DNA of 64,000 nucleotides from the NCBI GenBank assembly GCA_963723675.1, contig CAVRRW010000007.1, forward strand, positions 134,527 through 198,526, written 5' to 3'. The notes beneath the pieces were generated by a model, which did no database searches, was not told the DNA's origin, and saw only the letters and a list, made by a program, of their open reading frames with translations. Shown here piece by piece: positions 10,973 through 29,097 of the stretch. This DNA comes from an uncultured Solirubrobacterales bacterium (GTDB taxonomy: Bacteria > Actinomycetota > Thermoleophilia > Solirubrobacterales > Solirubrobacteraceae). Each line of letters begins with the position of its first letter. The first letter of the stretch is position 1. Position numbers and translations under genes: made by a program.

Positions 10973-11039
10973 GATCTTCTTGGAAGGGATTGTTCGCCAC
11001 CGGGGTTTCCTTTATGTTGGGCCAAACGTTGGAGGAAGG

Positions 11040-11819
11040 TTGGAGCGCACCGAACCTACCACGGTGCAACTGTGCGGAAAGGTCGTTCTTGAGCTGCGCG
11101 GCCGCCGTATCGAGCCGCTGCTCCCCAGCCGCCAGGGTCTAGTCCTGTTCGCCTACCTCGCGCTGAACCGCACGCGCGCCACCGGGCGCGACGAGCTCAT
11201 CGACGCGCTCTGGTGCGACGCCATCCCAGCCAACGCCGCAAACGCGCTTACCGCGCTGCTGTCGAAGCTCCGCGCCGTCCTCGGTACCGATGTCCTCGCG
11301 GGGCGCAGCAGCATCCAGCTCATGCTTCCCATCGACGCCCGTGTCGACGTCGAGCACGCGCTCGCCGCCGTGCATCGCGCCGAGTCCGCGGTGGCGCTTG
11401 GATCCTGGGCACGGGGTTGGAGCGCCGCGCTCAGCGCCCAGTTCATCGCAGCCCGCCCACTCCTACAGGGCTGCGATCGTCCGTGGATCGATGCGTGGCG
11501 ACGCCGGCTTGACGACACGCTCGAGCGCGCGCTCGAGGCCTACGCCGCTGCCTGCCTCGGTCTGGGAGGCACCGAGCTCCACGCGGCCGAGCGCGCTGCT
11601 CGCCGCTTACTCGAGCGCAGCCCGCTACGCGAGACCGGTTACCACCTGCTCATGCAGTCACTCGCCGCTCGAGGCAACGTCGCCGAGGCACTGGTGGTCT
11701 ATGAGCAGGCCCGCACAGTCCTGCGCGACCAACTCGGTACGACACCCGGCCCCGGAATTCAGGCCCTGCATAGCGAACTGCTCCACAACCGCGCACCGAT
11801 CGTCCATCCGGCGCCCTAA
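11040..11819 (+). CDS. AfsR/SARP-type transcriptional activator (winged HTH + BTAD, no ATPase)
   Basis: GGAGG RBS at 11031-11035 before TTG 11040; ELIDALW, ALTALLSKLR, PLRETGYHLLMQSLAARGNVAEAL. Confidence 0.85.
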   Translation: MERTEPTTVQLCGKVVLELRGRRIEPLLPSRQGLVLFAYLALNRTRATGRDELIDALWCDAIPANAANALTALLSKLRAVLGTDVLAGRSSIQLMLPIDARVDVEHALAAVHRAESAVALGSWARGWSAALSAQFIAARPLLQGCDRPWIDAWRRRLDDTLERALEAYAAACLGLGGTELHAAERAARRLLERSPLRETGYHLLMQSLAARGNVAEALVVYEQARTVLRDQLGTTPGPGIQALHSELLHNRAPIVHPAP

Positions 11820-11856
11820 CGCACCGGTGGCCGGGCACAGCCACGAAGCAACGGGC

Positions 11857-12537
11857 TCACCCGCTGAAGCCGCAGCGCGCCTCGCGGCGGAGCCGGTCGA
11901 GGCCGTCGAGGATGAGGTCGAGCCCCCATGCGAACTCGAGGGCGTTGTCGTATCGGGAGTGGGGGAGCTTCGTCACGATCTCGGTGAGATACGGGTAGTC
12001 GTCGAGGGCGCCGATCGTCTGCGCCCTTCTTTGCGCAGCTTCTCCGGCGCTTTCGGGGGTCTCGAATCCGAGATCCTGCTCCTGCAGGGCGAACCCGTAG
12101 ATGTAGGCGTCCTGGACGGAGTAGGCGTGGATCGCCGTTTCGAACGAGAAGCCGGCCTCGCGCAGGCAGCCCATCACGGCGTTGTGGTTTCGCAGGTTCG
12201 CCGGCCCCGGGTGCCGCGACTCCATCAGCCCGATCGCCCAACTGTGGCGCCTCAGCGTCTCGCGCGCCGATATCGCCCGGCGGCGCATTGCTGACCTCCA
12301 GTCGAGACCACCAGAGGGAGATTCGATCTCGCCAAAGACGACGTCGACCATGCCATCGAGGAGCTCGTCCTTGTTGGCGACGTGCTTGTAGAGCGCCATC
12401 GGCACGACGCCGAGCTCCTGCGCGAGCCCGCGCATGCTGAACGCCTCGAGCCCGATCTCGTCGGCGAGCGCGACGGCAGCCTGCAGCACGCGAGCTTTGC
12501 TCAGCGGTGTCCGAGTGGTGTCGGTCTGTTGCGTCAT
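11857..12537 (-). CDS. TetR/AcrR family regulator (TetR-class C-terminal domain)
   Basis: LSKARVLQAAVALAD..FSMRGLAQELGVVPMALYKHVANKDELL. Confidence 0.92.
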   Translation of the reverse strand: MTQQTDTTRTPLSKARVLQAAVALADEIGLEAFSMRGLAQELGVVPMALYKHVANKDELLDGMVDVVFGEIESPSGGLDWRSAMRRRAISARETLRRHSWAIGLMESRHPGPANLRNHNAVMGCLREAGFSFETAIHAYSVQDAYIYGFALQEQDLGFETPESAGEAAQRRAQTIGALDDYPYLTEIVTKLPHSRYDNALEFAWGLDLILDGLDRLRREARCGFSG

Positions 12538-12543
12538 TTAGGC

Positions 12544-12572
12544 TTGACAAGTGTACAGCGTACACCTATGCT
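12544..12572 (+). promoter_or_regulatory. Housekeeping-sigma promoter of the DUF4389 gene
   Basis: TTGACA (12544-12549), a 17-bp spacer, then TATGCT (12567-12572). Confidence 0.8.
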
Positions 12573-12599
12573 TTCACGATCAGAGTGTACGCCGTACAC
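12551..12599. promoter_or_regulatory. Twin TetR operators GTGTAC-N3-GTACAC
   Basis: Perfect inverted repeats at 12551-12565 and 12585-12599, between the divergent tetR and DUF4389 genes. Confidence 0.8.
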
Positions 12600-12627
12600 C
12601 TGAGACGGACCGACAGAAAGGCATCTC

Positions 12628-13293
12628 ATGGAGCAGTCGTATCCCCCCCAGCCGCCGGCGCAGCCGCCGGGCCCGGGCGCCTATCCCGTCCAGTACGCGG
12701 TCGACTACCCAGACCGGCCGCTGAACCGCCTGAGCACGTTCTTTCGCCTGTTGGTCATCATCCCGATCGCGATCGTGCTCTCCCTGGTGGAGGGCGGCAC
12801 CTACGGCTACGAGGGAGGCCGGGCCGTCACGATCGCCGCCGCCGGCGGGCTGATCGTGCTGCCGACGCTGCTGATGATCCTGTTTCGCCAGAAGTACCCG
12901 CGCTGGTGGTTTGACTGGAACCTCGAGCTGATGCGGTTCTCCGCCCGGGTGGGCGTCTTCCTGGCGCTGATGGACGACCGCTATCCCTCCACCGACGAGC
13001 ACCAGGCGGTGCATCTGGACTTCCCCTATCCGGACGCGCGCAACGACCTCAACCGCTGGCTGCCGCTGGTCAAGTGGCTGCTGGCGATCCCGCACTACGT
13101 GGCGCTGTTCTTCCTCTACATCGCGGCGTTGTTCGTCGTGATCGTGGCCTGGTTCGTGATCCTGTTCACCGGTCGCTTCCCACGCGCGATGTTCGACTTC
13201 CTCGTCGGCATCGGCCGCTGGACCAACCGGGTGATCGCCTACGCCCACGTGCTGGTAACCGATCGCTACCCGCCCTTCCGCCTCGCCCCGTAG
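12628..13293 (+). CDS. DUF4389-family membrane protein
   Basis: Two repeated units (LNRL..FFRLLVIIP / LNRWLPLVKWLLAIPHY; ILFRQKYPR / ILFTGRFPR; DRYPPF). Confidence 0.85.
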   Translation: MEQSYPPQPPAQPPGPGAYPVQYAVDYPDRPLNRLSTFFRLLVIIPIAIVLSLVEGGTYGYEGGRAVTIAAAGGLIVLPTLLMILFRQKYPRWWFDWNLELMRFSARVGVFLALMDDRYPSTDEHQAVHLDFPYPDARNDLNRWLPLVKWLLAIPHYVALFFLYIAALFVVIVAWFVILFTGRFPRAMFDFLVGIGRWTNRVIAYAHVLVTDRYPPFRLAP

Positions 13294-13477
13294 ATCCCCG
13301 GGGCGCACGCTGGGAGCCGACGGCCGAAGATTTCGCCCGGTCGGATTACGCAGACCAACCGATCTCTAAATGAGTCGCGCCCCGCAACCGGCGGGGAGTT
13401 GAAGGCCGGTCTCGCGGGGCGCGCTCGAGGGAGGAGAGGGTGTTGCCTGCACATCGTTGCGCGTCGGGCTTCAGAAG

Positions 13478-13521
13478 TCCAAGACGAGTATTGTCTTGGA
13501 TCCATAGGTTGAGCTTATGGA
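13478..13521. promoter_or_regulatory. Candidate LysR binding region
   Basis: TCCAAGAC-N7-GTCTTGGA (13478-13500), and TCCATA-N9-TATGGA (13501-13521) which contains T-N11-A and overlaps the lysR ATG. Confidence 0.55.
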
Positions 13522-14413
13522 TATTCGGCAGCTTCGATATCTGATCGCGCTCGCTGACGAGCGGCACTTCACTCGCGCGGCCGAACGAGAGCACATCGCG
13601 CAGCCGGCACTTTCGCAGCAGATCCGCCGGCTCGAGGAGGAGGTCGGGATCGCGCTGGTCGAGCGGACTACCCGCCGCGTTGCGATGACCGAGGCCGGCG
13701 AGCTGCTCGTGGGACGGGCCCGGCGGATCCTGTCCGAGCTCGACGCCGCCGAATCAGAGCTGCAGGGGCTGCGTGGGATTCAGGCCGGTCACGTGTCGGT
13801 CGGAGCGATGCATACGATGGGTCCGGTCGACGTCTCGCTGGCGCTGGCGATCTTCCACGAGCGCCATCCGGGCGTCGAGTTGACCGTTCGCGAGCAATCC
13901 AGCGAGGAGCTCGCAGAGATGCTCCGCGACGACGTGCTCGACCTCGCGTTCCTGTCGGTAACCGAGCGGATCGAGAGTCACGGCCTCGGCCTGCAGCTGC
14001 TGCTGTCGGAGGAGCTGGTCGTGATCCTGCCGCCGGCGCACCCGCTCGCACAACACTCCGGCGTGCGCATGGCAGAGCTCGCGGGCGAGCAGTTCATCAG
14101 CTACCGCGAGGGCGCACGATTGCGCGAGCTCCTCAACCACGCCGCCCGCGAGGCCGACTTCGACCCCCAGGTGATGCTCGAGTCAAACGAGAGCCGGCGG
14201 ATCCGCCGGCTGGTGGCCCGCGGGATGGGAGTGGCGATCCTGCCGCGCTCCGACACCGAGGGGGCCGGCGCCGACGTGGCCGTCGTCGACTTGACCGATC
14301 CGGCGCTGACGCGCGATATCACCCTTGCCTGGCGCCAGGGACGCCAGCACACGCCGGCGGTGGCCGAGTTCATCGAGCTCTCGCGGACGCTGTTCACGGT
14401 CGGCGGCTCGTAG
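13517..14413 (+). CDS. LysR-family transcriptional regulator
   Basis: MDIRQLRY..HFTRAAEREHIAQPALSQQIRRLEEEVG. Confidence 0.95.
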   Translation: MDIRQLRYLIALADERHFTRAAEREHIAQPALSQQIRRLEEEVGIALVERTTRRVAMTEAGELLVGRARRILSELDAAESELQGLRGIQAGHVSVGAMHTMGPVDVSLALAIFHERHPGVELTVREQSSEELAEMLRDDVLDLAFLSVTERIESHGLGLQLLLSEELVVILPPAHPLAQHSGVRMAELAGEQFISYREGARLRELLNHAAREADFDPQVMLESNESRRIRRLVARGMGVAILPRSDTEGAGADVAVVDLTDPALTRDITLAWRQGRQHTPAVAEFIELSRTLFTVGGS

Positions 14414-14429
14414 CATCACAGGGGTGGGC

Positions 14430-15479
14430 ATGTTCTCCCTCGACAACCTCCCAGAGCCGATCGTCCAGGCGCCGCTGGCGGGTGGACCGTCGACCCCGGA
14501 GCTCGCGCTCGCGGTGTGCGAGGCCGGCGGCCTCGGCTTCGTCGCGGCCGGGTACAAGTCCGCCCAGGCGCTGCGCGAGCAGATCGAGACCATGCGGGCC
14601 GCAACCGAGCGGCCCTTCGGCGCCAACTTGTTCGTCCCGTCGCCCCAGCCGGCGGACCCCGCAGGGCTACGCGCGTACCTGCGGGAGCTCGAGCCGGAGG
14701 CGCGGCACCGAGGCGTGGAGCTCGGCGCTCCGCACTTTGACGACGACGACTGGGAGCAAAAGCTCGACGTCGTCTGCGATCAATCGGTCCCGGTCGTGTC
14801 GTTCACGTTCGGGTGCCCGCCGCCGGCGGTGGTGGACCGGCTCCACCGAGCGGAGATCTCGGTCTGGGTGACGATCACGAACGCACGGGAGGCCCGGCAG
14901 GCGCAGGAAGTGGGCGCCGACGCCCTCGTGGTGCAGGGGATCGAGGCCGGTGGTCACCGCGGCGGCTTTGTCGACGACGAGAGCGCCGGCGGCACCGGGC
15001 TGCTGGCGCTGCTGCGCGTTGTCGACGAAGCGGTGTCCCTGCCTCTTGTCGCAAGCGGCGGTATCGCCGACGGAGCGGCGGTCGCGGCCGTCCTGTGTGC
15101 CGGCGCGAGCGCCGCCCAGATCGGCACGGCGCTGATGCTGGCGCCGGAAGCGGGCACGAACGAGGCGCAGCGCGCCCTCGTGACCGAGCCGATCCCGACT
15201 CGCCTGACCCGAGCGTTCACGGGCCGCCTCGCGCGCGGGATCGTCAACCGGTTCCTCGAAGAGCACAGCTCGTCGGCTCCGATTGCCTATCCCGAAATCC
15301 ACCACGTGACCGCCCCGTTGCGCGCGGCGGCCCGGCGTGAGGGGGACGCCGGCGGATTCAACCTCTGGGCCGGGGAAGCGCACGAGCTGGCCCGAGCGCT
15401 GCCGGCGGGCGAGATCGTGCGCACCATGGGAGCGGACGCTCGGCGGGTGTTGCGCGAGCTCGGCGAGCGGTACACGTGA
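14430..15479 (+). CDS. Nitronate monooxygenase family flavoprotein
   Basis: PIVQAPLAGG, VQGIEAGGHRG, ASGGIADG, AQIGTA, TRAFTGRLARG. Confidence 0.9.
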   Translation: MFSLDNLPEPIVQAPLAGGPSTPELALAVCEAGGLGFVAAGYKSAQALREQIETMRAATERPFGANLFVPSPQPADPAGLRAYLRELEPEARHRGVELGAPHFDDDDWEQKLDVVCDQSVPVVSFTFGCPPPAVVDRLHRAEISVWVTITNAREARQAQEVGADALVVQGIEAGGHRGGFVDDESAGGTGLLALLRVVDEAVSLPLVASGGIADGAAVAAVLCAGASAAQIGTALMLAPEAGTNEAQRALVTEPIPTRLTRAFTGRLARGIVNRFLEEHSSSAPIAYPEIHHVTAPLRAAARREGDAGGFNLWAGEAHELARALPAGEIVRTMGADARRVLRELGERYT

Positions 15480-15500
15480 GCGGCCGGTAGAACTACCCGC

Positions 15501-16457
15501 ATGTCCGACGCCGAGTTGGTGCTCCGCGGTGCCAGGCGGCCGTTGGTGATCGGGATGGGCGGCGGCGGGGATGTCGTCGGCGCGCTCGCGACCGCCGAGT
15601 TCGCCCGCATCTACGACGGCGCCCACCCGATCCTCGGGGGTGTGACCTGGGAGCGCCGGCCGATCGACCCGGTGCCGGGACCGCGGGCGGCCGATGAGAT
15701 CGACGATGCCCTCGAGCTCGCGCCCGGGATCCTGCTCGCCGGACCGCGGACTCGGGTCCGCGATCGCGACGTGTTCTTCGCCGAGTCGAGGATGTCGGAG
15801 TTCCTGGGCGAGCCGACGGTGCTGATCGACATCCGCGCCGGCGCGGGCGCCGTGGCGGACGGCCTCGCGCGGGCGGTCCGCCGGCTCGAGGCCGACCTGA
15901 TCGTGTTCGTCGATGTCGGCGGCGACCTGCTGGCCCGGGGCGATGAGGCGGGACTGAGGAGTCCGCTGTGTGACGCACTGATGCTCGCGGCGGCGTCGCG
16001 ACTGGACGATCGCGGTTACCCGGTGCTCGCCGCGATCTTCGGGATCGGCTGTGACGCAGAGCTTTCGCCGGCCGAAGTGCTCGCGCGGATGTCGAACGTC
16101 GCGACCGCCGGCGGATTGCGGGGCGCGCGCGGCCTGACCGAACCGGTGGTGGAGCGACTCGAGGGGGCGATGGAGCTCGTACCGACCGAGGCCAGCGCTC
16201 AGGCCGTGCGCGCGTTCCGGGGAGCCTCGGGCACCGCCGTGATCAGAGGTGGAACGCGGACGCTCGAGCTGACTCCCGCCGCGGCCCTGACGTTCTATCT
16301 CGACGTCCCCGTGACGTACCGCGAGGCCGGGCGGCTGGCTCGCGCGCTGGTGGACGCGCCGAGCCTGGAGCTGGCAAATCACGCACTGAACTCGCTGGGG
16401 GTGAGGACCGAGCTGGACTTGGAGCTCGAGGCCGCGGGGCAGACTGCCAGGCCGTGA
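15501..16457 (+). CDS. DUF1152-family protein
   Basis: GMGGGGDV, VDVGGD.LARGDE..LRSPLCDA, GIGCDAEL, PTEAS. Confidence 0.8.
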   Translation: MSDAELVLRGARRPLVIGMGGGGDVVGALATAEFARIYDGAHPILGGVTWERRPIDPVPGPRAADEIDDALELAPGILLAGPRTRVRDRDVFFAESRMSEFLGEPTVLIDIRAGAGAVADGLARAVRRLEADLIVFVDVGGDLLARGDEAGLRSPLCDALMLAAASRLDDRGYPVLAAIFGIGCDAELSPAEVLARMSNVATAGGLRGARGLTEPVVERLEGAMELVPTEASAQAVRAFRGASGTAVIRGGTRTLELTPAAALTFYLDVPVTYREAGRLARALVDAPSLELANHALNSLGVRTELDLELEAAGQTARP

Positions 16458-16479
16458 GCTCGACGCCGCGGGCGCGCAC

Positions 16480-16650
16480 GGCTAGACCCGTGGGCCAGAG
16501 GCGGCCAGACCCGTGGGCCAGAGGCGGCTAGGCCGTGGACCAGAGGCGGCTAGACCCATGGGCCAGAGGCGGCTAGACCCATGGGCCAGAGGCGGCTAGA
16601 CCCGTGGGCCAGAGGCGGCTAGACCGTGGGCCAGAGGGGGCTAGACCGTG
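16480..16650. repeat. Tandem repeat, 22-23 bp unit (GGCTAGACCCGTGGGCCAGAGGC), about 7.5 copies
   Basis: Read directly. The last partial copy contains the stop codon of the convergent dehydrogenase gene. Confidence 0.95.
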
Positions 16651-17606
16651 AAGGCGATCTTGCCTACCACCTCGCCGCCGAGCATCGCCTCGAATCCATC
16701 GCGGGCGTCGGCCAGCGCCATCGTGCTGTGAATCACCGGGCGCACGTCCCGGTCCAGGCAAAGGCGTATCAGTCGCTCGAGCTCGTCGCGGGTGCCCATC
16801 GTCGACCCGATGACCGACAGCTGCAGGAAGAAGATCCGGTTCAGCTGCGCCGGCGAGGGGTCTCCGGTGGTCGCGCCGCAGACGACCAGTGTGCCGCCGG
16901 GCTTGAGCGATCGCACCGAGTGCTCCCAGGTCGCCTGACCGGTCGTCTCCATCACCGCATCGACGCGCTCGGGCACGCGCGCGCCCGATTCGAACACCTG
17001 GTCGGCGCCGAGCTCGAGCGCATGCGCGCGCTTCTCCTCCGAGCGCCCCGTGACCCACACGCGGATGCCGGTGGCGCTTGCGAGCACGGTCAGGGCCGTC
17101 GCGACGCCGCCGCTGGCGCCCTGGACGAGGATCGTGGCACCTGGGACCACGCGCCCCCGCGTGAACAGCATCCGGTAGGCGGTCAGCCACGCGGTCGGAA
17201 GGCACGCCGCCTGTTCGAAGGAGATCTCCGCCGGCTTGGAAACGAGGTTTCGCCGCGGCACGGCGACCCCCTCGGCGAATGTGCCCTGGTAGCGCTCGGA
17301 CAGGAGCGAGCGGCGCGGGTCGAAGGTCTCGTCGCCTCGCCAGCTGTCGCTGGCGATCACCGCGTGGACGACGACCTCGTTGCCGTCCTCATCGAGGCCG
17401 GCGGCGTCGCAGCCGAGGATCATCGGCAGCCGGTCGCGCGGAAGGCCGACCCCCCGCAACGACCAGAGGTCGTGATAGTTCAGCGACGCGGCCTTGACGG
17501 ACACCGTGGTCCAGCCGTCGGGGACGGAGGGCTCGGGGCGATCGCCGATGACGAGTCCGCTTAGGGGGTTTTTGGGATCGATGTCGGAGGCAAATGCTGC
17601 GAGCAT
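16641..17606 (-). CDS. Zinc-binding/MDR-family oxidoreductase
   Basis: Start MLAAFAS at 17606; ASLNYHD, ILGCDAAG, CLPTAWLTAYRML, QGASGGVA, GSTMGT. Confidence 0.9.
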   Translation of the reverse strand: MLAAFASDIDPKNPLSGLVIGDRPEPSVPDGWTTVSVKAASLNYHDLWSLRGVGLPRDRLPMILGCDAAGLDEDGNEVVVHAVIASDSWRGDETFDPRRSLLSERYQGTFAEGVAVPRRNLVSKPAEISFEQAACLPTAWLTAYRMLFTRGRVVPGATILVQGASGGVATALTVLASATGIRVWVTGRSEEKRAHALELGADQVFESGARVPERVDAVMETTGQATWEHSVRSLKPGGTLVVCGATTGDPSPAQLNRIFFLQLSVIGSTMGTRDELERLIRLCLDRDVRPVIHSTMALADARDGFEAMLGGEVVGKIAFTV

Positions 17607-17839
17607 CGGCGCATGATGACGGACCAGGCACGCCGAGGGGCTCGCGCTGACCGAGCGCCTGTGCGCGCCGGACGCGGTGGCCACGCATCGGCTCGGCGGC
17701 GGACGATCTCCCGCGTGGTACCGATACGGACGCGGCCGGCGTTCATCTGCGCGATGCCGGTCCGAATCGCGGCCGGCGATCACCTGCGCGATGGCCGATA
17801 CGAGCTGCGTCGATGCGGTCGCGTGAGCGCGATGCGAGA

Positions 17840-18310
17840 ATGAGCTCGATGGCCAGGGTCAAGGTCTTTACAAACCGTGAAGTGAACGCGCCGGCGGACC
17901 GGGTGCTCGCGGTCCTGCGCGACTACCGCGCGGCACGTCCACGAATCCTCCCCAGCAACTACACCGCGTATCGCGTCGAGCAGGGCGGACAAGGGGACGG
18001 GACGGTGATCGCCTACCACTTCGCCGCAGGTGGCCGCGAACGCGACTACCGCCTCCGCGTCGAGGAGTCCGGCAGCGAGCTTCGCGAGCGCGACGAGTCG
18101 TCGTCGTTCGTCACCACCTGGAACGTCGCGCCCGCCGGGGCGGGCAGCACTGTGACCCTCGAGTCCTCGTGGGAGGGCGCCGGTGGAATCGGCGGCTTCT
18201 TCGAGCGGACGTTTGCGCCGATCGGGCTGCGCCGGATCTACGGCGAGATGCTCGACCGCCTTGCGGCGGCGGCTCAATCCGGACCGCCCCCGGCCGCCGA
18301 GTCAGCCTGA
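17840..18310 (+). CDS. SRPBCC/polyketide cyclase-like protein
   Basis: APADRVLAVLRDY...ILP, GGRERDYRL, GGFFERTFAP. Confidence 0.8.
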   Translation: MSSMARVKVFTNREVNAPADRVLAVLRDYRAARPRILPSNYTAYRVEQGGQGDGTVIAYHFAAGGRERDYRLRVEESGSELRERDESSSFVTTWNVAPAGAGSTVTLESSWEGAGGIGGFFERTFAPIGLRRIYGEMLDRLAAAAQSGPPPAAESA

Positions 18311-18465
18311 TCGCGGGCGGCTGCCAGGCCATGTCGGGCGTACGGCTTGGGTGCTGCGACGGGCGCATGTCGTTCAGCCTCAGCGCTCGCCGCGGAGAGA
18401 GTCCGACACCGCGATGGGGTTCATCGACCGGAAACATCCCAGCCGAGCCCTTCCTGAGGTCGCGC

Positions 18466-18536
18466 GGGACGTTGCCCCCTTCCTAGAACGGCAACGTCCC
18501 TGGCAAGGCTCAAGAAGCCTCGAGTGGGACGTTGCC
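18466..18536. repeat. REP-like palindromic element, copy 1
   Basis: GGGACGTTGCC(18466)-13 nt-GGCAACGTCCC(18490)-25 nt-GGGACGTTGCC(18526). The same motif and spacing recur at 46246-46352. Confidence 0.8.
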
Positions 18537-18568
18537 GAGTCCAGTTTCCGGTGCATTTGCCGCCGGGT

Positions 18569-18826
18569 TTGGGGTGTGGTCCGTGGCGGACGGGTTGGGC
18601 GCGGGGTGCGGTCCGCGGCGGACGGGTAGGGCGCGGGGTGCGGTCCGCGGCGGACGGGTTGGGCGCGGGGTGCGGTCCGCGGCGGACGGGTAGGGCGCGG
18701 GGTGCGGTCCGCGGCGGACGGGTAGGGCGGGGGGTGTGGTCCGCGGCGGACAGGTTGGGCGCGGGGTGCGGTCCGCGGCGGACGGGTTGGGCGCGGGGTG
18801 CGGTCCGCGGCGGACGGGTAGGCGCG
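18569..18826. repeat. G-rich minisatellite, 32 bp unit (GGGCGCGGGGTGCGGTCCGCGGCGGACGGGTW), about 8 copies
   Basis: Period measured from 18601 to 18633. Each unit holds a GTCCG-cgg-CGGAC hairpin and three G-runs. Confidence 0.95.
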
Positions 18827-19265
18827 CACCGCTCGCCGCCAGCCGCCCCGCCCTCGCCGGCGCCAGCTCACCCCCCGTCCTCGCCGGCGCCCGTGTGCCG
18901 TCTCGGACCCGCCGGCGATGCCACCCCTGTACGCTCCCCCTGAAGTGATCGCCAACTCCGGCTGACGGGCCGCGGCCCGACCGCCAGAGTTCCGCCCCAG
19001 GAGGAGAGCCTCGCGAGCCCCAGGTCCGTCGACCCTATGCCTGTCCGGGTCTCAGATAAGCAGGCTTTTGCAAGTTCCGGCACCGTTTGAGACGAGCGTG
19101 CGGCGAGCGTGGAGAACGCGCTGGAGTTGGTCACGCGGCTGGGGCCGGAGCCGGCCCGCCGGCGGACGGCCGCGCGCATCGGCGCGCGCCGGCGCGCGGG
19201 AGAGCACTCGCCTGCGGAGGCAGGCAATTTGATGGTCGGTGCCCATCCAGTCAAGGAGGTGTGAC

Positions 19266-19526
19266 GTGCCCGTGATCGCTGCTTCGACGGGTTGGTACAT
19301 CGGGCTTGTGCTCGGGATCGTGGTCGTCGCGGTAGCCGCCGCGATCGTGATCGCGATCGTGCTCCTGGCCAACCGCATCGCCGCGCAGGCTCGGACCGCG
19401 GTCGCAGGAGTGGACAAGGTGCGCGAGCAGACGACGGAGCTCGGTGGGATCGGCCGGATAAACGACTCCGGCGTGCGGATCTTGCACTCCGCGCGAGCGC
19501 TTCGAAAGGTGGCGGTCGGAAAATGA
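19266..19526 (+). CDS. Small single-TM helical protein 1 (cox-linked)
   Basis: AAGGAGG RBS then GTG 19266; TM GWYIGLVLGIVVVAVAAAIVIAIVLLA followed by an amphipathic helix; stop overlaps the next ATG (ATGA). Confidence 0.85.
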   Translation: MPVIAASTGWYIGLVLGIVVVAVAAAIVIAIVLLANRIAAQARTAVAGVDKVREQTTELGGIGRINDSGVRILHSARALRKVAVGK

Positions 19527-19816
19527 CGCTCTCCTACGCCGCGCTGTCCAACCACGGCGCCTGGTGGATCGCGCTGGCGATCGGCCTGGTCGCGGCGCTG
19601 GTCGTGGCGGGCCTGCTGCTCGTCCTGGTCAGGACCGTAACCGACATTCGGAAGTCCGCCGGCGCGTTGCTCGAGGCCGCCGGCAAGGTCGCCGCGAACA
19701 CCGCAAACATCCCGCAGCTAGAGGCCACCGCGCCGGTGCTGGGACTGATCGTGGAGGAGGCCGTGGTCCAGGACGGCTACATGAACGCGCTCACCGACGG
19801 GTTCGGTGGCAAATGA
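19523..19816 (+). CDS. Small single-TM helical protein 2 (cox-linked)
   Basis: MTLSYAALSNHGAWWIALAIGLVAALVVAGLLLVLVRTVTDIRK...TANIPQLEAT...DGFGGK; ATGA coupling. Confidence 0.85.
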   Translation: MTLSYAALSNHGAWWIALAIGLVAALVVAGLLLVLVRTVTDIRKSAGALLEAAGKVAANTANIPQLEATAPVLGLIVEEAVVQDGYMNALTDGFGGK

Positions 19817-19940
19817 TCGCGTTGATCACCACACGGGTTCGGTGGCAAGTGATCGCGTTGATCATCACACACGGGTTCGGTGGCAAATGATCGCGTTGAC
19901 CATCACACACGGGTTCGGTGGCAAATGACCACGTTAATCA
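19797..19940. repeat. Tandem 36-38 bp repeat (about 4 copies) of the gene2-stop/gene3-start junction
   Basis: ACGGGTTCGGTGGCAAATGATCGCGTTG... starts at 19797, 19833, 19871 and 19909. Confidence 0.92.
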
Positions 19941-20194
19941 TCCTCAGCGTCATCCTCGCCGTGGTCGTGGTGGCGGTGCTCGCGGCGGCGCTGACCAAGG
20001 TGCGCGCCGACCTGGAGGCGACTTCCAAGGACCTGGCGACGCTGGCCTCGGCGCTGGCGACGGTAGAGGCCGAGCACCTGCGGCCGCTCGAGCCCGCAGT
20101 CAAGGCGATCAACGCCCAGTTCGACGTGATCCTCAGCGCGCTGCCGGGGATCGCATCAAAGGCGGCGATCGTCGCCGAAAGGAGGCCGACGTGA
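19925..20194 (+). CDS. Small single-TM helical protein 3 (cox-linked)
   Basis: MTTLIILSVILAVVVVAVLAAALTKVRADLEAT...HLRPLEPAVKAINAQFD; stop overlaps the next GTG. Confidence 0.85.
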   Translation: MTTLIILSVILAVVVVAVLAAALTKVRADLEATSKDLATLASALATVEAEHLRPLEPAVKAINAQFDVILSALPGIASKAAIVAERRPT

Positions 20195-20448
20195 TCCTCG
20201 AGTGGATCGGAGACGCGGTGCTCCTCCTGGTGCTGCTGCCGGTCGTGGTCTACCTCCTTCGCAGTGTCCTGAACGCCGCCAACAGCATCGTCGGAAGCGT
20301 CGAGCAGACCGCCGGCGCCGCACAGGCCGGGTCCAAGGACCTCGACGCGGTGCCGCTGCTGCTGACCACGCAGGAGCAGGTAAGAAAGACGATCGAGTCG
20401 GCAGCCAACTACGGCGGCTCGCTCGACGTGATCCTCGACGACGCCTGA
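20191..20448 (+). CDS. Small single-TM helical protein 4 (cox-linked)
   Basis: AAAGGAGG RBS, GTG 20191; ILEWIGDAVLLLVLLPVVVYLLRSVLNAANSI...LDAVPLLLTT. Confidence 0.85.
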   Translation: MILEWIGDAVLLLVLLPVVVYLLRSVLNAANSIVGSVEQTAGAAQAGSKDLDAVPLLLTTQEQVRKTIESAANYGGSLDVILDDA

Positions 20449-20459
20449 TTGGAGGAGCG

Positions 20460-21176
20460 ATGCCGGCAGCCGGCATAGTCATGATCATCGCCGTCGTCCT
20501 GATCGTCCTGGCGCTCGTCTACTACCTCGTCTCGACGATCCTCGCGCTCCAGAAGATCACCAAGGGGCTCGACAGGGCGATCGCCGCAGTCGTCGAGATC
20601 ATCCAGAAGACCGAGGCCGTGGCCCCGGTCGTCAACGACATCAACGCCAACCTCGACGCCGGCGTCGACCTGCTCGAGGGCCTGCTCGTCAAGAAGGCGG
20701 GGATGGCCGATGCGCTCGGGCTGGTCGACGGCCTCTACCCGGGGGCTGCCGCGGCGGGCTTTCGCAACTTCCCCGACAGCGCCACGACGAAGGCGCCGCG
20801 CATCTCCGAGGTGTACACGAGGGGAACGCTGACGCTCGCGCGGCTTGGCCGGGAAGCGCCGATCGCGGCCGCCAGCCCCGATGGGCCCGCGTTGCGCAAC
20901 CCGGCCTACGGCAGCCTGGCGGCGAGGTTGCTGTATCCCGAGATCCGCCAGCGGCGGCCCGAGCGCCTGCCCCGCTCACCGGTGATCGGGGCCGGCTCCC
21001 CGGTCCAGTACGAGCCCAGCGAGGAGCCTGGGGTCCGCCGGCGCATGCCCACTGGCACGGAGGATCCTGGGGTCCGCCGGCGCATGCCCACTGGCACCCA
21101 CCCCGCGGACCCGTCCGGGGCCGCTCTCGCCGACCCAGAGGAAACGAGGCCCGATGCAGACACCGGCTCCGTTTGA
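20460..21176 (+). CDS. Single-TM helical protein 5 with extended soluble C-terminal tail (cox-linked)
   Basis: GGAGGAG RBS, ATG 20460; IVMIIAVVLIVLALVYYLVSTILALQKI...EAVAPVVNDINANLD; overlaps the coxM start. Confidence 0.85.
   Translation: MPAAGIVMIIAVVLIVLALVYYLVSTILALQKITKGLDRAIAAVVEIIQKTEAVAPVVNDINANLDAGVDLLEGLLVKKAGMADALGLVDGLYPGAAAAGFRNFPDSATTKAPRISEVYTRGTLTLARLGREAPIAAASPDGPALRNPAYGSLAARLLYPEIRQRRPERLPRSPVIGAGSPVQYEPSEEPGVRRRMPTGTEDPGVRRRMPTGTHPADPSGAALADPEETRPDADTGSV
21021..21098. repeat. In-frame 39-bp duplication (EEPGVRRRMPTGT x2)
   Basis: Copies start at 21021 and 21060. Confidence 0.9.
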
Positions 21177-22029
21177 GTACGAGCGCGCCACAAGCGTCGA
21201 GGGCGCGATCGCGTCGCTGCAGCGGCTCGGCTCCGAGGCGCGAATCATCGCCGGCGGCCACAGCCTGCTGCCGATGATGAAGCTCCGGCTGGCCAACCCC
21301 GAGCACCTGATCGACATCAACGATCTCGACGAGCTGTCCTACATCCGCCAAGACGGCGAGGAGATCCGGATCGGCGCGCTGACCCGCCACGCGGATCTCG
21401 ACAAATCGGAGCTGCTGGCCGAGCACCTGCCGGTGTTCCGCGACGCCGAGCAGATGATCGCCGATCCGCCGGTCCGTAATCGCGGCACGATCGGCGGATC
21501 GCTGTGTCAGGCCGACGCCGCCGAGGACCTCAGCGCCGTGTGCGCGGCGCTCAAGGCCAAGGTCGTGATCCGCGGGCCCGGCGGCGAGCGCGTGCTCGGG
21601 ATGGACGGCTTCTACCTCGGGCCGTTCACCACCGCCGTCGGCGCCGATGAGCTGCTGACCGAGATCCGGATCCCGCTGCGTCCCAACGGCGGCAGCGCCC
21701 ACGAGAAGGTCGAGCGCCGCGCCGGCGACTTCGCGATCGCGGCCGCGTCGGCGGCGGTCTGGATCGAGGGATCGCGGATCGCCGACGCGGGGCTGGCGCT
21801 GAGCGCGGTCGGCCCGATCACGATCCAGGTCTCCCGCGTGGAGGAGCTGCTGCGGGACAAGCCGCCGTCGGAGGAGCTGTTCGCGGCGGCCGGGGAGCTG
21901 GCGGCCGAGGACTGCGCTCCGATCGCCGACGGCCGCGGGACCGTCGCATACAAGCGGCACCTCGCGGCGGTGCTCAGCAAACGTGCGCTGCGCCGGGCAA
22001 CGGCGCGCGCGCTCCACCAGGAGGTGTGA
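21154..22029 (+). CDS. coxM: CO dehydrogenase medium (FAD) subunit
   Basis: IIAGGHSLLPMMKLR, IRIGALTRH, VRNRGTIGGSL, KVERRAGDFA. Confidence 0.93.
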   Translation: MQTPAPFEYERATSVEGAIASLQRLGSEARIIAGGHSLLPMMKLRLANPEHLIDINDLDELSYIRQDGEEIRIGALTRHADLDKSELLAEHLPVFRDAEQMIADPPVRNRGTIGGSLCQADAAEDLSAVCAALKAKVVIRGPGGERVLGMDGFYLGPFTTAVGADELLTEIRIPLRPNGGSAHEKVERRAGDFAIAAASAAVWIEGSRIADAGLALSAVGPITIQVSRVEELLRDKPPSEELFAAAGELAAEDCAPIADGRGTVAYKRHLAAVLSKRALRRATARALHQEV

Positions 22030-22079
22030 GTGCTCCCCCCTAAATTCCACTCCATTCGAGCACGAGGAGAAGCACTGAC

Positions 22080-22559
22080 GTGCAGGTGACGATCACGATC
22101 AACGGCGAACCGGTCTCCCGGGACGTGGAGCCGCGCCAGCTGCTCGTGCACTTCATCCGCGAGACGCCCGGGCTGACCGGCACCCACTGGGGCTGCGACA
22201 CGTCCAACTGCGGCGCCTGCGTGGTGCTGATGGACGGCAAGCCCGTGAAATCCTGCACGATCCTCTCCGCGATGGTCGAGGGCCACGAGGTCCGCACGGT
22301 CGAGTCGCTCGAGGTCGACGGCCGGCTTGATCCGCTGCAGCAGGGCTTCCACGAGAAGCACGCGCTGCACTGCGGCTTCTGCACGCCGGGGATGCTGATG
22401 ACCGCGCGCGCCCTGCTGGACGAGAACCCCGACCCGACCGAGCAGGAGATTCGAACCGCGATCTCGGGCGCGATCTGCCGTTGCACCGGCTACAAAAACA
22501 TCGTCAGCGCGGTTCGCTGGGCGGCCGAGCACCAAGCCGCGACAAAACAGGAGGCGTGA
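22080..22559 (+). CDS. coxS: CO dehydrogenase small (2x[2Fe-2S]) subunit
   Basis: GCDTSNCGAC...KSC; CGFCTPG; ICRCTGY. Confidence 0.95.
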   Translation: MQVTITINGEPVSRDVEPRQLLVHFIRETPGLTGTHWGCDTSNCGACVVLMDGKPVKSCTILSAMVEGHEVRTVESLEVDGRLDPLQQGFHEKHALHCGFCTPGMLMTARALLDENPDPTEQEIRTAISGAICRCTGYKNIVSAVRWAAEHQAATKQEA

Positions 22560-22563
22560 AAGC

Positions 22564-24957
<2,394 letters not shown>

Positions 24958-24975: not shown

Positions 24976-25917
24976 ATGACGCCAGTGCATGTCACCGGGG
25001 AGGCCGCGGACGAGATCCGCCGGCTGGTGCCCGACGTGGAGACGCTGGCCCGGCGGCTGGCATCGGTGGACTACCTCGTCGACGAGGGCCTGGCCACGTC
25101 GATGTTCCTGAGCCTGGCGCTGCCCCAGCCGCTGCTGCTCGAGGGCGAGGCGGGGGTCGGCAAGACCGAGGCGGGCAAGTCGCTTGCGGCGGTGCTGCAG
25201 ACGCCGCTGATCCGCCTGCAGTGCTATGAGGGGATCGACGCGGCCGAGTCGCTGTACGAGTGGAACTACCCGCGCCAGCTGCTCAGCATCAGGCTCGCCG
25301 ACGCCCACGGCGCCGACCTGCGCGAGGAGGACCTGTTCGGCCGCGACTACCTGATCCGCAGGCCGTTGCTGCGGGCGCTGGAGCATCCGGGGCCGCGACC
25401 GGCGGTGCTGCTGATCGACGAGATCGACCGCGCCGACGACGACTTCGAGGCGTTCCTGCTGGAGCTGCTCGCCGAGGCGGCGGTGACGATCCCCGAGCTG
25501 GGCACCGTGCGGGCAACGCATCCTCCAATCATCGTGCTGACCTCCAACCGCACGCGCGACCTGCACGACGCGGTCAAGCGCCGTTGCCTGTACCACTGGA
25601 TCGACTATCCGAGCGCCGAGCGCGAGGTCGAGATCGTGCGCCGCCGGGTCAAGGGCTCGTCGGAGACGCTCGCGGTGCAGGTGGCCGGCGCGGTCGCGAG
25701 GATGCGCGATTCCGACGTGCAGAAGCCTCCGGGCGTGGCGGAGGCGATCGACTGGCTGGCCGCGCTGACCGTGCTCGGCGTGCGGCGACTCGACGAGCGG
25801 GCGATCGCGCGCACGCTCGGGTCCGTGCTCAAGTACTCAGAGGACCAGGAGGTGATCCGGGCCGCCGGTCTGGAAACGCTCGTGGCCGGCGGCGGGGGAG
25901 GGCGAGGAGATGGCTGA
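24976..25917 (+). CDS. coxD: MoxR-type AAA+ ATPase, CODH maturation
   Basis: Walker A GEAGVGKT, RLQCYEG, Walker B LLIDEIDRAD, LTSNRTR. Confidence 0.9.
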   Translation: MTPVHVTGEAADEIRRLVPDVETLARRLASVDYLVDEGLATSMFLSLALPQPLLLEGEAGVGKTEAGKSLAAVLQTPLIRLQCYEGIDAAESLYEWNYPRQLLSIRLADAHGADLREEDLFGRDYLIRRPLLRALEHPGPRPAVLLIDEIDRADDDFEAFLLELLAEAAVTIPELGTVRATHPPIIVLTSNRTRDLHDAVKRRCLYHWIDYPSAEREVEIVRRRVKGSSETLAVQVAGAVARMRDSDVQKPPGVAEAIDWLAALTVLGVRRLDERAIARTLGSVLKYSEDQEVIRAAGLETLVAGGGGGRGDG

Positions 25918-27343
25918 GACGGCCTTCACGGTCGAGACGATCGAGCTCGACCTGCCGGCCGTGGTCGTCGCCTTCAGCCGGCGACTGCACCGCGCCGGTG
26001 TGCCGATGACCGCCGAGCGAGCGGCCCGCTTCGCACAGGCCCTGACGCTGGTCAGGCCGATCACCCGGCGGCGGCTCTACTGGACTGCGCGGGCGGTGGT
26101 GGTCTCCGACGCCTCGCAGGTCGGGGCGTTCGATGCGGTGTTCTTCTCGGTGTTCGGGGCGCGGCCCGGCCGCGACGAGCCCGTCGCCGATGACCCGCAG
26201 CCGGTTGCGCCATCGGCCGATGAGCGGCCCGGATCTGACCGCGAGACAGACGGCGCGGGGGCGGTTCCGCGCGGCACTACCGCGGGATCGGCGGCACCGA
26301 CCCCGAATCGGCGGCCGCAGGATCCCTCGCGCGAGGTGGCGCTGCCGATGGCCGCCAGCGACGAGGAGGTGCTGCGCGAGAAGCGCTTTGACGCGCTCGA
26401 GCCCGACGAGCTGGCCCAGCTCTACCGCGTGATGGCGCGGCTGCGGGTGGCGACACCGCTGCGTCGCACCCGCCGCGTCCGGCGCGACCGCCGCGGCGAG
26501 CGTATCGACATGCGCCGCACGCTGCGCGCGAGCATGCGCACCGGCGGCGATCCGATTCGCCTGGCCCGGCGGCGCCGGCGCGTGGTCCGCCGGCGGCTGG
26601 TGCTGCTCTGTGACATCTCCGGTTCGATGGAGCCCTACGCGCGCGCGTACCTGCAGTTCCTCACCTCTGCCGCCGGCAGCGGCGCCGGCGGGGGGTGGGG
26701 GCGCGGGAGCGGGGTGCGCGGGGGCCGGGTGTCCCGGGGCGGGTCGGAGGCATTCGTGTTCGCCACGCGACTGACCCGCGTGACCCGGCCCCTGGCTTCG
26801 CGAAGTCCGGAGCGGGCGATCCAGCGCGCCGCCGCGGCCGCTCCGGACTGGTGCAGCGGCACCCGGATCGGCGATGCGCTCAAGGCCTTCAACGACCGCC
26901 ACGGACGTCGCGGGATGGCGCGCGGCGCCGTGATCGTGATCCTCTCCGACGGCTGGGAGCGCGGCGCTCCGGCGCTGGTGGGCAGGGAAATGGAGCGCCT
27001 GGCGCGGCTCGCGCACCGGATCGTCTGGGTCAACCCGCGGGTGGCGGCGAGTGGCTTTCAGCCGCGCGCCGGGGGGATGGCGGCGGCGCTGCCGCACTGC
27101 GACGCGCTCGTCAGCGGCCACAACCTGCGTGCGCTCGAGGAGGTCGCAGAGGCGATCGCCGCGCCGCGCGGGGCCGGGGAGGGGCCGGGGATGAGCTGGA
27201 AGAGCGACCCGGTCGAGGCGGAGGCCGAGGAGGAGAGCTGGGCCAGCGCGACACCAGTTCAGGGCAGCTCGGTCGCGATGCCCAGCGGCTACGGCCCAAG
27301 CAGGGGACGCACGATCCCGGGATGGGGGTCTGATGGGCGCTGA
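25910..27343 (+). CDS. coxE: VWA-domain CoxE-like protein
   Basis: IDMRRTLRAS, MIDAS motif LCDISGSME, SGTRIG, ILSDGWERG, WVNP. Confidence 0.9.
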   Translation: MAETAFTVETIELDLPAVVVAFSRRLHRAGVPMTAERAARFAQALTLVRPITRRRLYWTARAVVVSDASQVGAFDAVFFSVFGARPGRDEPVADDPQPVAPSADERPGSDRETDGAGAVPRGTTAGSAAPTPNRRPQDPSREVALPMAASDEEVLREKRFDALEPDELAQLYRVMARLRVATPLRRTRRVRRDRRGERIDMRRTLRASMRTGGDPIRLARRRRRVVRRRLVLLCDISGSMEPYARAYLQFLTSAAGSGAGGGWGRGSGVRGGRVSRGGSEAFVFATRLTRVTRPLASRSPERAIQRAAAAAPDWCSGTRIGDALKAFNDRHGRRGMARGAVIVILSDGWERGAPALVGREMERLARLAHRIVWVNPRVAASGFQPRAGGMAAALPHCDALVSGHNLRALEEVAEAIAAPRGAGEGPGMSWKSDPVEAEAEEESWASATPVQGSSVAMPSGYGPSRGRTIPGWGSDGR

Positions 27344-27551
27344 CCGGGCGACCGGCAAGCGCTGCATCTATCCGGGTTGCGAACGGCCCGCCGTTCCGCC
27401 ACATCCACTTGGCGGCCCGCAGCCGAGCTTCTGCGAGCTGGAGGAGCACAACGCGCTGACCGCCCACCTGGAACGCCGGCGGATCGCGCGCGAGGCGGCG
27501 CCCAACGGCGCCGGGGACCAAACCACCGCCGGGAGGTTCGACGATGGCTGA
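27333..27551 (+). CDS. Small Cys/His putative metal-binding protein
   Basis: 72 aa, CIYPGC...SFCELEEHN; overlaps the coxE stop and the next start. Confidence 0.7.
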   Translation: MGADRATGKRCIYPGCERPAVPPHPLGGPQPSFCELEEHNALTAHLERRRIAREAAPNGAGDQTTAGRFDDG

Positions 27552-27996
27552 GGAGGCATATCGCGCCGTGTTCCTGCGGGTGCACCCGACCGGAAAAATG
27601 GTGCTCAGCCTGACCACCGAGTCCGACGGAATGGAGCCGGAGTACGCGCAGCTGGTCGCGGAGGCGCTGGGGGTCCCGGCGCTCGACGTCAAGGTCGTGT
27701 CGGCCGACGAGAACCGGTTCGGAGTCGGTCACGGGTTCAACACCAGCCCCTCGCAAGCGACGCCGGCGGCGATCACCAGCGCCGCCGGAAAGATCCTCGA
27801 CAAGGCCCGCCTGCTCGCGGGCGCCGCGCTCGACGCCCCGCCCGACAGCCTCGAGTGGAGCAACGGAGCGTTCGTCGGCGCCGATCCAGCGCGGGCCCAG
27901 ACGATCGCGGACATCGCGCTGTACGCGCACGGCAGCGGCGTCCTTCCTGCGGGCGTCGAGGGCGGGCTCGACGCGCAGACCGTCTACCGCGAATGA
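27544..27996 (+). CDS. Stand-alone degenerate molybdopterin-binding subdomain homologous to internal CoxL
   Basis: LRVHPTGKMVLSL...AQLVAEALGVP...EGGLDAQTVY aligns by eye with CoxL LRVHPSGKAVVSL...AQIVAEELGIP...EGGLDAQVIY. Confidence 0.85.
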   Translation: MAEEAYRAVFLRVHPTGKMVLSLTTESDGMEPEYAQLVAEALGVPALDVKVVSADENRFGVGHGFNTSPSQATPAAITSAAGKILDKARLLAGAALDAPPDSLEWSNGAFVGADPARAQTIADIALYAHGSGVLPAGVEGGLDAQTVYRE

Positions 27997-28064: not shown

Positions 28065-28592
28065 TCAAAGCGCGGCGTCGACCTCGACCTGCACCTCGTC
28101 GAGGACCTTGAGCGTCCCGAACAGCGCCGAGTACGGCTTCATGCCCCAGTCGCTCTGCTTGACGGTGGCGGTCCCGGCAAGCCGCCCGTCATCGATGCCC
28201 AGCTCGAACGCGATCGGGTGGCGGGCGCCGGCGAGCTCGAGCTCGCCCCGGACGTTCAGGCGCCTCCCGTCGGAACTGACGTTCACGTCGCTGGACTCGA
28301 ACGCGATCGCGGAGCCCTTGAGCACCTCCTCGTCGATCGTCTGCTCGATCCCCGCCTTGTCATCGTCGCCGAGCACCATCATGCCGCCGATGCCCTCGCG
28401 CACGCGCAGCGAGCGCGCGTCGGCGGTGAGCGAGATCCGGGGCTGTGGGGCGAGCTCGAGCGTCCCCTCCCACGAGCTGACCTCGATCACGAGATCGTGG
28501 GCGGCCTTCGCGGCGGCGCCGCCCTTCTTCGTCCTGACCGTGAGCATGGCGTTGCCGGGGCCGAATGCATGCGTTCCGTCAGCGAGTGGCAT
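28065..28592 (-). CDS. YceI-family (polyisoprenoid-binding) protein
   Basis: HDLVIEV, ISLTADARSL, IAFESS, GELELAG..HPI, TVKQSDWGMKPYSALFG.LKVLDEV pattern; no signal peptide. Confidence 0.8.
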   Translation of the reverse strand: MPLADGTHAFGPGNAMLTVRTKKGGAAAKAAHDLVIEVSSWEGTLELAPQPRISLTADARSLRVREGIGGMMVLGDDDKAGIEQTIDEEVLKGSAIAFESSDVNVSSDGRRLNVRGELELAGARHPIAFELGIDDGRLAGTATVKQSDWGMKPYSALFGTLKVLDEVQVEVDAAL

Positions 28593-28668: not shown

Positions 28669-29097
28669 ATGGTTGAGCTGGACCATCGGTTCTCCACGGG
28701 GAAGCCGATCGAGGAGAACTGGGAGGCGATCCTCGACCTCGAGCGGCTGGTGCCGTGCGTGGAGGGAGGCAGCGTCATCGAGCGAACCGATTCGGAGGCG
28801 GTGAAGGCCGAGATCAAGGTGAAGATGGGGGCGATGTCGATGAAGTTCACGGGCACGGTGGCGGTCGTCGAGCAGGATCCCGGGGCTCATCGGGCCCTGA
28901 TACGCGTCAAGTCCAAGGAGGCCGGTGGCCAGGGTCACGCCAACGCCGATGTGGTGTTCTCCCTGTCGGATGGTGGCGGAACGATCCACACCGCCGCGCA
29001 GATCACCGGTAAGGCGGCGTCGATGGGCGAGGGAGTGGTGGTCAGCGTGCTCGACGCGCTGATCAAGGACTTCACCGAGAAGCTCGCCAACATCTAA
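28669..29097 (+). CDS. coxG: CoxG-family SRPBCC protein, no C-terminal membrane anchor
   Basis: W..ILDLERLVPCVEGG, VKMGAMSMKFTG, GKAASMGEGVV..V...LIKDFTEKL; AAGGAG RBS; the protein ends at 142 aa. Confidence 0.88.
   Translation: MVELDHRFSTGKPIEENWEAILDLERLVPCVEGGSVIERTDSEAVKAEIKVKMGAMSMKFTGTVAVVEQDPGAHRALIRVKSKEAGGQGHANADVVFSLSDGGGTIHTAAQITGKAASMGEGVVVSVLDALIKDFTEKLANI

Follow-up and report, generated by a model that had tools for sequence, protein, structure and literature searches.

A 64,000-nucleotide stretch of DNA from an uncultured Solirubrobacterales bacterium (class Thermoleophilia; assembly GCA_963723675.1, contig CAVRRW010000007.1, positions 134,527 to 198,526), called the window in the following, contains five small consecutive genes, P1 to P5, which head the gene cluster of a form I molybdenum-containing carbon monoxide dehydrogenase (Mo-CODH). 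The products of this five-gene cassette are the best candidate for the link between soluble air-scavenging enzymes and the membrane. The favoured explanation, to which a probability of roughly 0.55 was assigned, is that the co-produced proteins form a membrane-rooted helical complex that docks a soluble trace-gas oxidoreductase, and that an extension of P5 serves as an adaptor to CODH or CoxG. Sets of this kind have been published but are uncharacterised; new is a set that is linked to CODH and has a P5 with a tail.

The original prediction had placed five genes in front of coxM, and these were indeed found on the + strand, the last one overlapping the start of coxM at position 21154 by 23 nt (Table 1). 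The G+C content at third codon positions (GC3) was 0.82-0.92 for P1-P5 and 0.92-0.93 for coxMSL, and the ratios of nonsynonymous to synonymous substitution rates (dN/dS) of 0.17-0.32 (20 relatives per gene) revealed purifying selection. The coding-type GC3 and the dN/dS values thus show that P1-P5 are genuine, strongly conserved genes. No terminator-like site was detected on the + strand between P1 and coxL, and an Rfam scan of positions 17500-22500 gave no match. The enzyme was assigned to the form I Mo-CODHs based on the AYRCSFR loop in CoxL and the gene order coxM-S-L. The source genome contains one cassette, one form I coxL, which lies beside the cassette, and at least four form II/XOF paralogues.

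A coupling of all genes by ribosome-binding sites or overlapping stop and start codons had also been proposed. Overlaps were present at P1/P2, P3/P4 and P5/coxM, but P2 and P3 are 108 nt apart in the window, because, as assembled, a tandem repeat (Table 1) lies between them. In most relatives the P2/P3 junction is a 4-nt overlap, the 38-nt repeat is specific to the window, and contigs of relatives from soil RNA libraries skip 117 nt at this site. The repeat copies the 'GFGGK-stop/ATG' junction and yields two mini open reading frames (ORFs), both ending with ATGA, via which translational coupling of P2 and P3 may be relayed. Insertions at the same junction were seen in a few relatives (132 nt in L021, 67 nt in L062 and 55 nt in L051), which suggests that it is a hot spot.

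The expected association of the homologues with form I coxL was verified by a neighbourhood analysis of 163 related loci from about 150 distinct species. These were the 80 closest loci, 80 loci from a second scan, which was seeded with distant P5 proteins (45-50% identity, tails with repeated GRxxxRGxRPWER), and three others. The order of P1-P5 was retained in all 163 loci. In all of the 80 closest, species-level loci, with P5 identities of 63-87%, the arrangement was P1-P2-P3-P4-P5-coxM-S-L, mostly with 4-nt overlaps, and P1 was matched at 65-92% identity in 79 of them. In the other 83 loci, with P5 identities down to 45%, coxMSL followed 0-7.5 kb downstream wherever the contig was long enough. 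It followed either immediately or after 1.5-7.5 kb with moaA, moaC, a divergent LysR gene and genes for further transmembrane (TM) proteins, and some genomes had two tandem cassettes.

Next, the co-occurrence of P5 and CoxL was analyzed in 301 evenly drawn Thermoleophilia genomes. A match to P5 was obtained in 32 genomes. CoxL of the window clade was present in 30 genomes (at least 75% identity in 29 of them, and 71% for a partial copy in the other), and all 30 contained P5; thus, none of the 301 genomes had a CoxL of the window clade without P5. The remaining two P5 matches were a weak one in G003, which belongs to a hydrogenase-type set, and a remnant in G061, a genome without a coxL of the window clade. 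This remnant (L176, positions 9679-10553) consists of P3-P4-P5, with P5 cut to 109 aa and without P1 or P2, and is consistent with decay of the cassette after loss of the client. No cassette was found in the 18 of the 301 genomes that have a form I enzyme of another clade (CoxL identity 59-72%; the AYRCSFR motif was confirmed in 11 of 11 inspected).

Several features of these loci were noted in addition. In ten cassette-free loci (L164-L173) the second form I clade has the AYRCSFR motif, CoxL is 62-64% and CoxM about 41% identical, and coxD/coxE are divergent; a form II (AYRGAGR) operon, the CoxG of which bears a C-terminal amphipathic tail, adjoins this clade in four of these loci. CoxM is usually the least conserved CODH subunit, and the value of about 41% was therefore rejected as a sign of co-adaptation. 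In L175 (G017, positions 4735-17632), as well as in L104, L111, L113, L117, L129 and L132, the cassette operon separates the two parts of a second form I-like set, with coxM2-coxS2 directly 5' of P1 and coxL2 (AYACSFR, 65-70% identity) and xdhC 3' of coxG. In these close relatives the P1-P5-coxMSLDE...G block seems to have been inserted into an older cox operon. In the distant clade (L100, positions 6343-8824 and 10901-12115; L081, L084, L086 and L088) extra membrane proteins flank the cassette. On the 5' side these are two or three paralogues of 245-275 aa with weak similarity to DUF948/Laminin_II-type coiled coils, with a PadR-like regulator upstream of them, and on the 3' side a TM protein of about 190 aa.

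The architecture proposed for all five proteins was borne out, a TM helix at the N terminus preceding a helical hairpin. Each protein has one hydrophobic stretch near the N terminus, with a Kyte-Doolittle mean over 19 residues of 2.6-3.35. AlphaFold2 predicted for P5 two helices, residues 3-52 and 54-92, with per-residue confidence (pLDDT) values of 80-98 and a break at the Ala-Pro hinge, and for P4 a helix that is interrupted at Pro55. In about 75-80 orthologues per family there was no lysine or arginine before the TM helix, while 1.2-2.6 were found in the 15 residues that follow it. According to the positive-inside rule, the N terminus is thus predicted to be outside, and the C terminus with the helical parts to be cytoplasmic. 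Both CODH and hydrogenase are cytoplasmic, and the predicted orientation would suit the docking of an enzyme on this side of the membrane.

The tail of about 140 aa that had been described for the fifth protein was present as well. In P5 the TM helix and the hairpin occupy residues 1 to about 95; they are followed by an extension of high conservation (about 100-200) and by a basic tail, which is variable and includes a 13-aa repeat. The region from about residue 100 to 238, which is confined to the Thermoleophilia cassette, was modelled by AlphaFold2 with low confidence (pLDDT below 60). Nevertheless, residues 100-200 are the best-conserved segment of the family, with dozens of invariant columns. 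High conservation combined with the lack of a confidently predicted fold suggests a resemblance to partner-binding segments. At positions 21021-21097 a 39-nt direct repeat doubles the motif EPGVRRRMPTGT in the tail, and distant P5 proteins terminate in one to three copies of GRxxxRGxRPWER. Judged from its sequence, this short, basic and repeated C-terminal motif resembles a docking peptide.

A further clue comes from CoxG. In Mycobacterium smegmatis CoxG shuttles menaquinone from the membrane to CODH, for which a C-terminal TM helix on a flexible linker is needed (Kropp et al. 2025, PMC12202499), and in Oligotropha carboxidovorans CODH is recruited to the membrane by CoxG (PMC4240915). The CoxG of the window cluster lacks such an anchor (Table 1), and the same was true for every relative locus with a readable coxG. 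In cassette-free Thermoleophilia the only CoxG seen is encoded beside the neighbouring form II genes and ends in an amphipathic extension. The helix and linker of the M. smegmatis protein are a membrane tether of the electron output of CODH, and the anchor is absent where the cassette is present. This correlation points to the electron-output side of the enzyme. The two solutions differ in that the mycobacterial anchor is one helix that is part of the quinone shuttle, whereas P1-P5 are a separate set of five proteins without sequence relationship to it. Taken together, the strict synteny, the co-occurrence within the CoxL clade, the single copy, the missing terminator, the P5/coxM overlap and the anchorless CoxG corroborate the predicted functional tie of the five genes to form I CODH.

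The five proteins had been called paralog-like, which held for their architecture but was weakly backed by their sequences. BLASTP comparisons among P1-P5 resulted in 25-31% identity over about 80 residues with weak E-values. A comparison of the family profiles with hhalign yielded probabilities of 77% for P1-P2 and 53% for P3-P5, and less than 15% for the other pairs. A broader P4 profile matched P1- and P2-type neighbours with per-genome E-values of 1e-4 to 1e-5. A common origin of P1-P5 is plausible from these matches, but it is not established, because the composition of TM segments inflates profile and BLAST scores; in view of the weak profile-profile scores, paralogy of the five families is not claimed.

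Searches of Pfam and NCBIfam with P1-P5 and with their orthologues from hydrogenase clusters, which are described below, returned only noise below the thresholds. The best Pfam match was that of P5 to DUF948 (PF06103), with 12.4 bits versus a gathering threshold of 37.2 bits and an E-value of 0.19, and P1-P4 had no match to DUF948; by the Pfam criterion P1-P5 are thus outside this family. DUF948/YoxC proteins have the layout of P1-P5, in which a helical hairpin comes after the N-terminal TM helix, and YoxC is the label of some homologues at JGI. No match was found in a PDB sequence search with the P5 profile, nor in a Foldseek comparison of the P5 model with the PDB. The P5 family is narrow, with 472 clusters at 50% identity among 1.84 billion representatives.

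Each of the five families has short orthologues in [NiFe]-hydrogenase clusters of other Actinomycetota. Outside Thermoleophilia the P5 and P4 profiles matched short genes (78-104 aa) in several Actinomycetota families, and P4 of the window could be aligned over its full length with proteins from hydrogenase clusters. The neighbouring genes encode large and small [NiFe]-hydrogenase subunits, HypC/D/F, CooC-type NTPases, NifU-like proteins and DUF1059 proteins; among solved structures, 5AA5, that of a group 1h enzyme, is closest to the large subunit. The P4 profile was positive in 31 of 401 Actinomycetota genomes, and nearly all contexts contained cox genes or hydrogenase/hyp accessory genes. 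The exceptions were one locus in which nothing was called and one second-copy cassette without identifiable neighbours. HhyS was encoded within 10 kb in 74 of the 80 loci with a hydrogenase-type P2, most of which are from Acidimicrobiia. In these loci the HhyS gene is usually divergent and adjoins the orthologues of P1-P2-P3, and those of P4-P5 are found elsewhere in the same cluster. One protein encoded beside a P4 orthologue ('hyp174') was considered as HucM-like and was rejected, since it is a NifU-like protein.

In Rubrobacteraceae five ORFs lie between HhyS-like and HhyL-like genes and map to P1, P2, P5 (weakly), P4 and P3. The P4 profile A4 matched the interposed ORFs of five Rubrobacteraceae genomes with per-genome E-values of 3e-13 to 2e-12. 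In a small ORF set the hidden Markov models of P1 and P2 reached E-values of 1e-10 and 4e-15, respectively, and those of the P3 and P5 types 5e-8 and 4.5e-4. A word-based search starting from a Rubrobacter protein detected only Rubrobacter relatives. The cox clusters of two genomes, G653 and G497, have the set at their 3' end, after xdhC and with a short P5. The long P5 tail is exclusive to the Thermoleophilia type of cassette, which heads the cox operon. No hydrogenase gene was found near the set of the window, which heads coxMSL instead. Group 1h-type (Hhy) hydrogenases lack TM segments and nevertheless associate with the membrane, through a partner that is not known (10.1101/769216; PMC7174314). 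The presence of all five orthologues in the clusters of this high-affinity enzyme, the membrane association of which is unexplained, strengthens the proposed link between CODH and the membrane.

Counterparts of the set have been described for hydrogenases. Ortiz et al. reported HylTM1-5, five short predicted TM proteins encoded between HylS and HylL of group 1l hydrogenases, and regarded them as a 'speculative complex' (10.1101/2020.08.06.239558). Like P1-P5, HylTM1-5 are encoded by five consecutive small ORFs with one predicted TM helix each, they are genetically tied to a soluble high-affinity trace-gas enzyme, and a membrane complex has been proposed for both, HylTM1-5 themselves being predictions only. 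In contrast to HylTM1-5, the client of P1-P5 is a Mo-CODH, the set heads the operon, and P5 has a tail of about 140 residues. Based on the Rubrobacteraceae arrangement and the profile matches rather than on the published Hymenobacter roseosalivarius sequences, P1-P5 are predicted to belong to the HylTM1-5-type sets. Furthermore, Ray et al. (2022) described group 1m clusters that encode a CooC-type NTPase, DUF1059 and two proteins of 82-92 aa with one TM helix each (PMC9561532). The surroundings are the same as for the P4 and P5 orthologues outside Thermoleophilia, i.e., a CooC-like NTPase, P4, P5, DUF1059 and a NifU-like protein. The publication gives two proteins without identifiable domains and without a proposed role; in the present analysis the orthologues of P1-P3 were found beside hhyS in the same clusters.

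A further system for comparison is HucM of the Huc hydrogenase, a single protein that forms a homo-tetrameric tube via its C-terminal helices (Grinter et al. 2023, PMC10017518). As a helical scaffold associated with the membrane, HucM connects a soluble oxidoreductase for an atmospheric gas with menaquinone, and the likeness to P1-P5 is a functional analogy only. No HucM or DUF1641-type match was obtained for P1-P5 in Pfam and NCBIfam, for the P5 profile among the PDB sequences, or for the P5 model in the Foldseek comparison with the PDB. No paper was found that links such sets of five TM proteins to CO dehydrogenase. The claim of an undescribed module therefore stands with respect to CODH, but not with respect to the counterparts in hydrogenase clusters, which had already been published as predictions.

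According to the explanation favoured here, P1-P5 would be five co-produced single-pass proteins of the inner membrane, each with one TM helix between a short external N terminus and a cytoplasmic helix-turn-helix. They would be produced in a fixed proportion and probably assemble into one membrane-rooted helical complex at the cytoplasmic face. Through this complex a soluble trace-gas oxidoreductase would be kept on the inner side of the membrane and could pass its electrons to menaquinone. In the source organism the client would be the form I Mo-CODH. P5 appears to have gained the conserved extension of about 100 residues and the basic tail, which probably act as a CODH-specific (or CoxG-specific) adaptor and may offset the absent C-terminal membrane anchor of CoxG.

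A more specific version, which we consider possible but unlikely, is that P1-P5 form a 1:1:1:1:1 hetero-pentameric bundle that is a common device for quinone hand-over, shared by Mo-CODH and the [NiFe]-hydrogenases of groups 1h, 1l and 1m. The bundle would lift menaquinone or present it at the membrane surface to the anchorless CoxG or to the distal redox centre of the enzyme, and the adaptor by which a hydrogenase module was redirected to CODH would be the P5 tail specific to Thermoleophilia.

Several results limit the case for a shared membrane dock. A fusion of P4, P5 and CoxM, obtained by reading through the stop codons in locus L070, was modelled with AlphaFold2 from an alignment with partly paired rows. 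CoxM folded well, but the P5 tail had pLDDT values of 40-55 and the predicted TM-score (pTM) was 0.52, in an output without contact or predicted aligned error (PAE) values that speaks neither for nor against docking. Form I CODHs often function without the cassette, e.g., in other Thermoleophilia and in M. smegmatis, and thus the cassette is not essential to the enzyme family. In one clade coxMSL follows the cassette only after a divergent LysR gene and moaA/moaC, showing that co-transcription is not universal. A search for RNA runs of the source organism found none, only soil libraries with relatives. Contigs of these relatives span the P1-P4, P4/P5 and P5/coxM junctions, and the depth over the P genes was similar to that over coxM and coxS; because carry-over of DNA is possible, they are weak evidence of expression. 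Lastly, the P4 and P5 genes of hydrogenase clusters lie beside genes for a CooC-type NTPase, NifU-like and DUF1059 proteins, which would fit a role in maturation equally well.

In such a role P1-P5 would be a membrane platform that, during loading of the apo-enzyme, tethers the machinery for cofactor insertion, namely CoxD/CoxE/CoxF for the Mo-S-Cu site, and CooC-type NTPases, NifU-like proteins and DUF1059 proteins for the [NiFe]-hydrogenase. The placement just described, in which the P4 and P5 genes have CooC-type NTPase genes on one side and DUF1059 or NifU-like genes on the other and are away from the structural genes, would be explained by it. So would the position of moaA and moaC in the distant Thermoleophilia clade, where they separate the cassette from coxM, and the binding of CoxD and CoxE of O. 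carboxidovorans to the membrane in the absence of a TM helix (PMC4240915). However, the window and its 80 closest relatives couple the cassette to coxM and not to coxD/coxE, in Rubrobacteraceae the five genes lie between two structural hydrogenase genes, the P1-P3 orthologues adjoin hhyS in Acidimicrobiia, and the anchorless CoxG indicates the electron-output side of the enzyme. A platform for maturation is the main alternative, but was regarded as rather unlikely.

It is improbable that P1-P5 are a membrane sensor or regulator of the expression or activity of trace-gas enzymes, in which DUF948-like/MCP-like helical hairpins would report the membrane potential or the redox state of the quinones. 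The weak DUF948/YoxC 'MCP-like' resemblance of P5, the YoxC label of some homologues and the adjacent LysR gene in one clade would agree with this idea, but the Pfam score is far below the cut-off, a conserved kinase, anti-sigma or DNA-binding partner is missing, and five stoichiometrically coupled structural-type genes would be unusual. That the genes are neighbours by descent only, without a functional tie to CODH, is very unlikely: the loci are all from one class and synteny can be inherited among close relatives, but the association holds down to 45% identity and survives rearrangements in which the cassette is 5' or 3' of the cox genes or in a separate unit, it has no exceptions in 22 genera despite a patchy distribution, it recurs with a second, unrelated enzyme, and one genome without the CODH (L176) has merely a truncated remnant.

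The five genes and the neighbouring cox genes are compiled in Table 1. Genes of the xdhC type were found near coxG in the 3' part of the cluster. The 72-aa ORF, the CoxL-fragment ORF and the antisense YceI gene were kept in 70, 74 and 67 of the 80 closest loci, respectively, and are thus stable members of this type of cox cluster. The gap of 950 nt 5' of P1 contains a G+C-rich tandem repeat (18571-18827; eight copies of 32 nt, 93% matches). Further upstream, at 17813-18310, an SRPBCC/Polyketide_cyc2 protein of 165 aa is encoded, which belongs to the superfamily of CoxG and was kept in the seven closest relatives.

Table 1. Positions of P1-P5 and of the genes and repeat around them in the window.
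Feature	Position	Strand	Remarks
P1	19266..19526	+	86 aa; GTG start after AAGGAGG ribosome-binding site; GC3 0.82
P2	19523..19816	+	97 aa; ATGA overlap with P1
Tandem repeat	19797..19942	+	38 nt, 3.9 copies; P2 stop/P3 start junction duplicated
P3	19925..20194	+	89 aa
P4	20191..20448	+	85 aa; GTGA overlap with P3
P5	20460..21176	+	238 aa; GGAGGAG ribosome-binding site; 23 nt shared with coxM
coxM	21154..22029	+	flavin adenine dinucleotide (FAD) subunit; start inside the end of P5
coxS	22080..22559	+	
coxL	22564..24957	+	form I, AYRCSFR; best PDB match 8UEM, M. smegmatis Mo-CODH, 1252 bits
coxD and coxE	24976..27343	+	MoxR-type AAA+ protein (CoxD) and VWA protein (CoxE)
72-aa Cys/His ORF, 150-aa CoxL-fragment ORF, antisense YceI gene	27333-27996 and 28065-28592		
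coxG	28669..29097	+	142 aa; ends right after the SRPBCC domain, no C-terminal membrane helix

The oxidation of atmospheric CO and H2 by soil bacteria is a major sink of both gases. The CODH and hydrogenase enzymes are soluble, yet their electrons must reach the quinones of the membrane. This link is made by HucM in the case of Huc and by the anchored CoxG in the case of mycobacterial CODH. For the hydrogenases of groups 1h, 1l and 1m the membrane partner is still unknown, although membrane association is deemed essential to their high affinity in the literature, and in the Thermoleophilia, an abundant class of soil bacteria, the CoxG anchor is missing. One set of five proteins that occurs with both types of enzyme is a concrete, testable candidate for the missing membrane link, and it would mean that a membrane module can be transferred between unrelated oxidoreductases.

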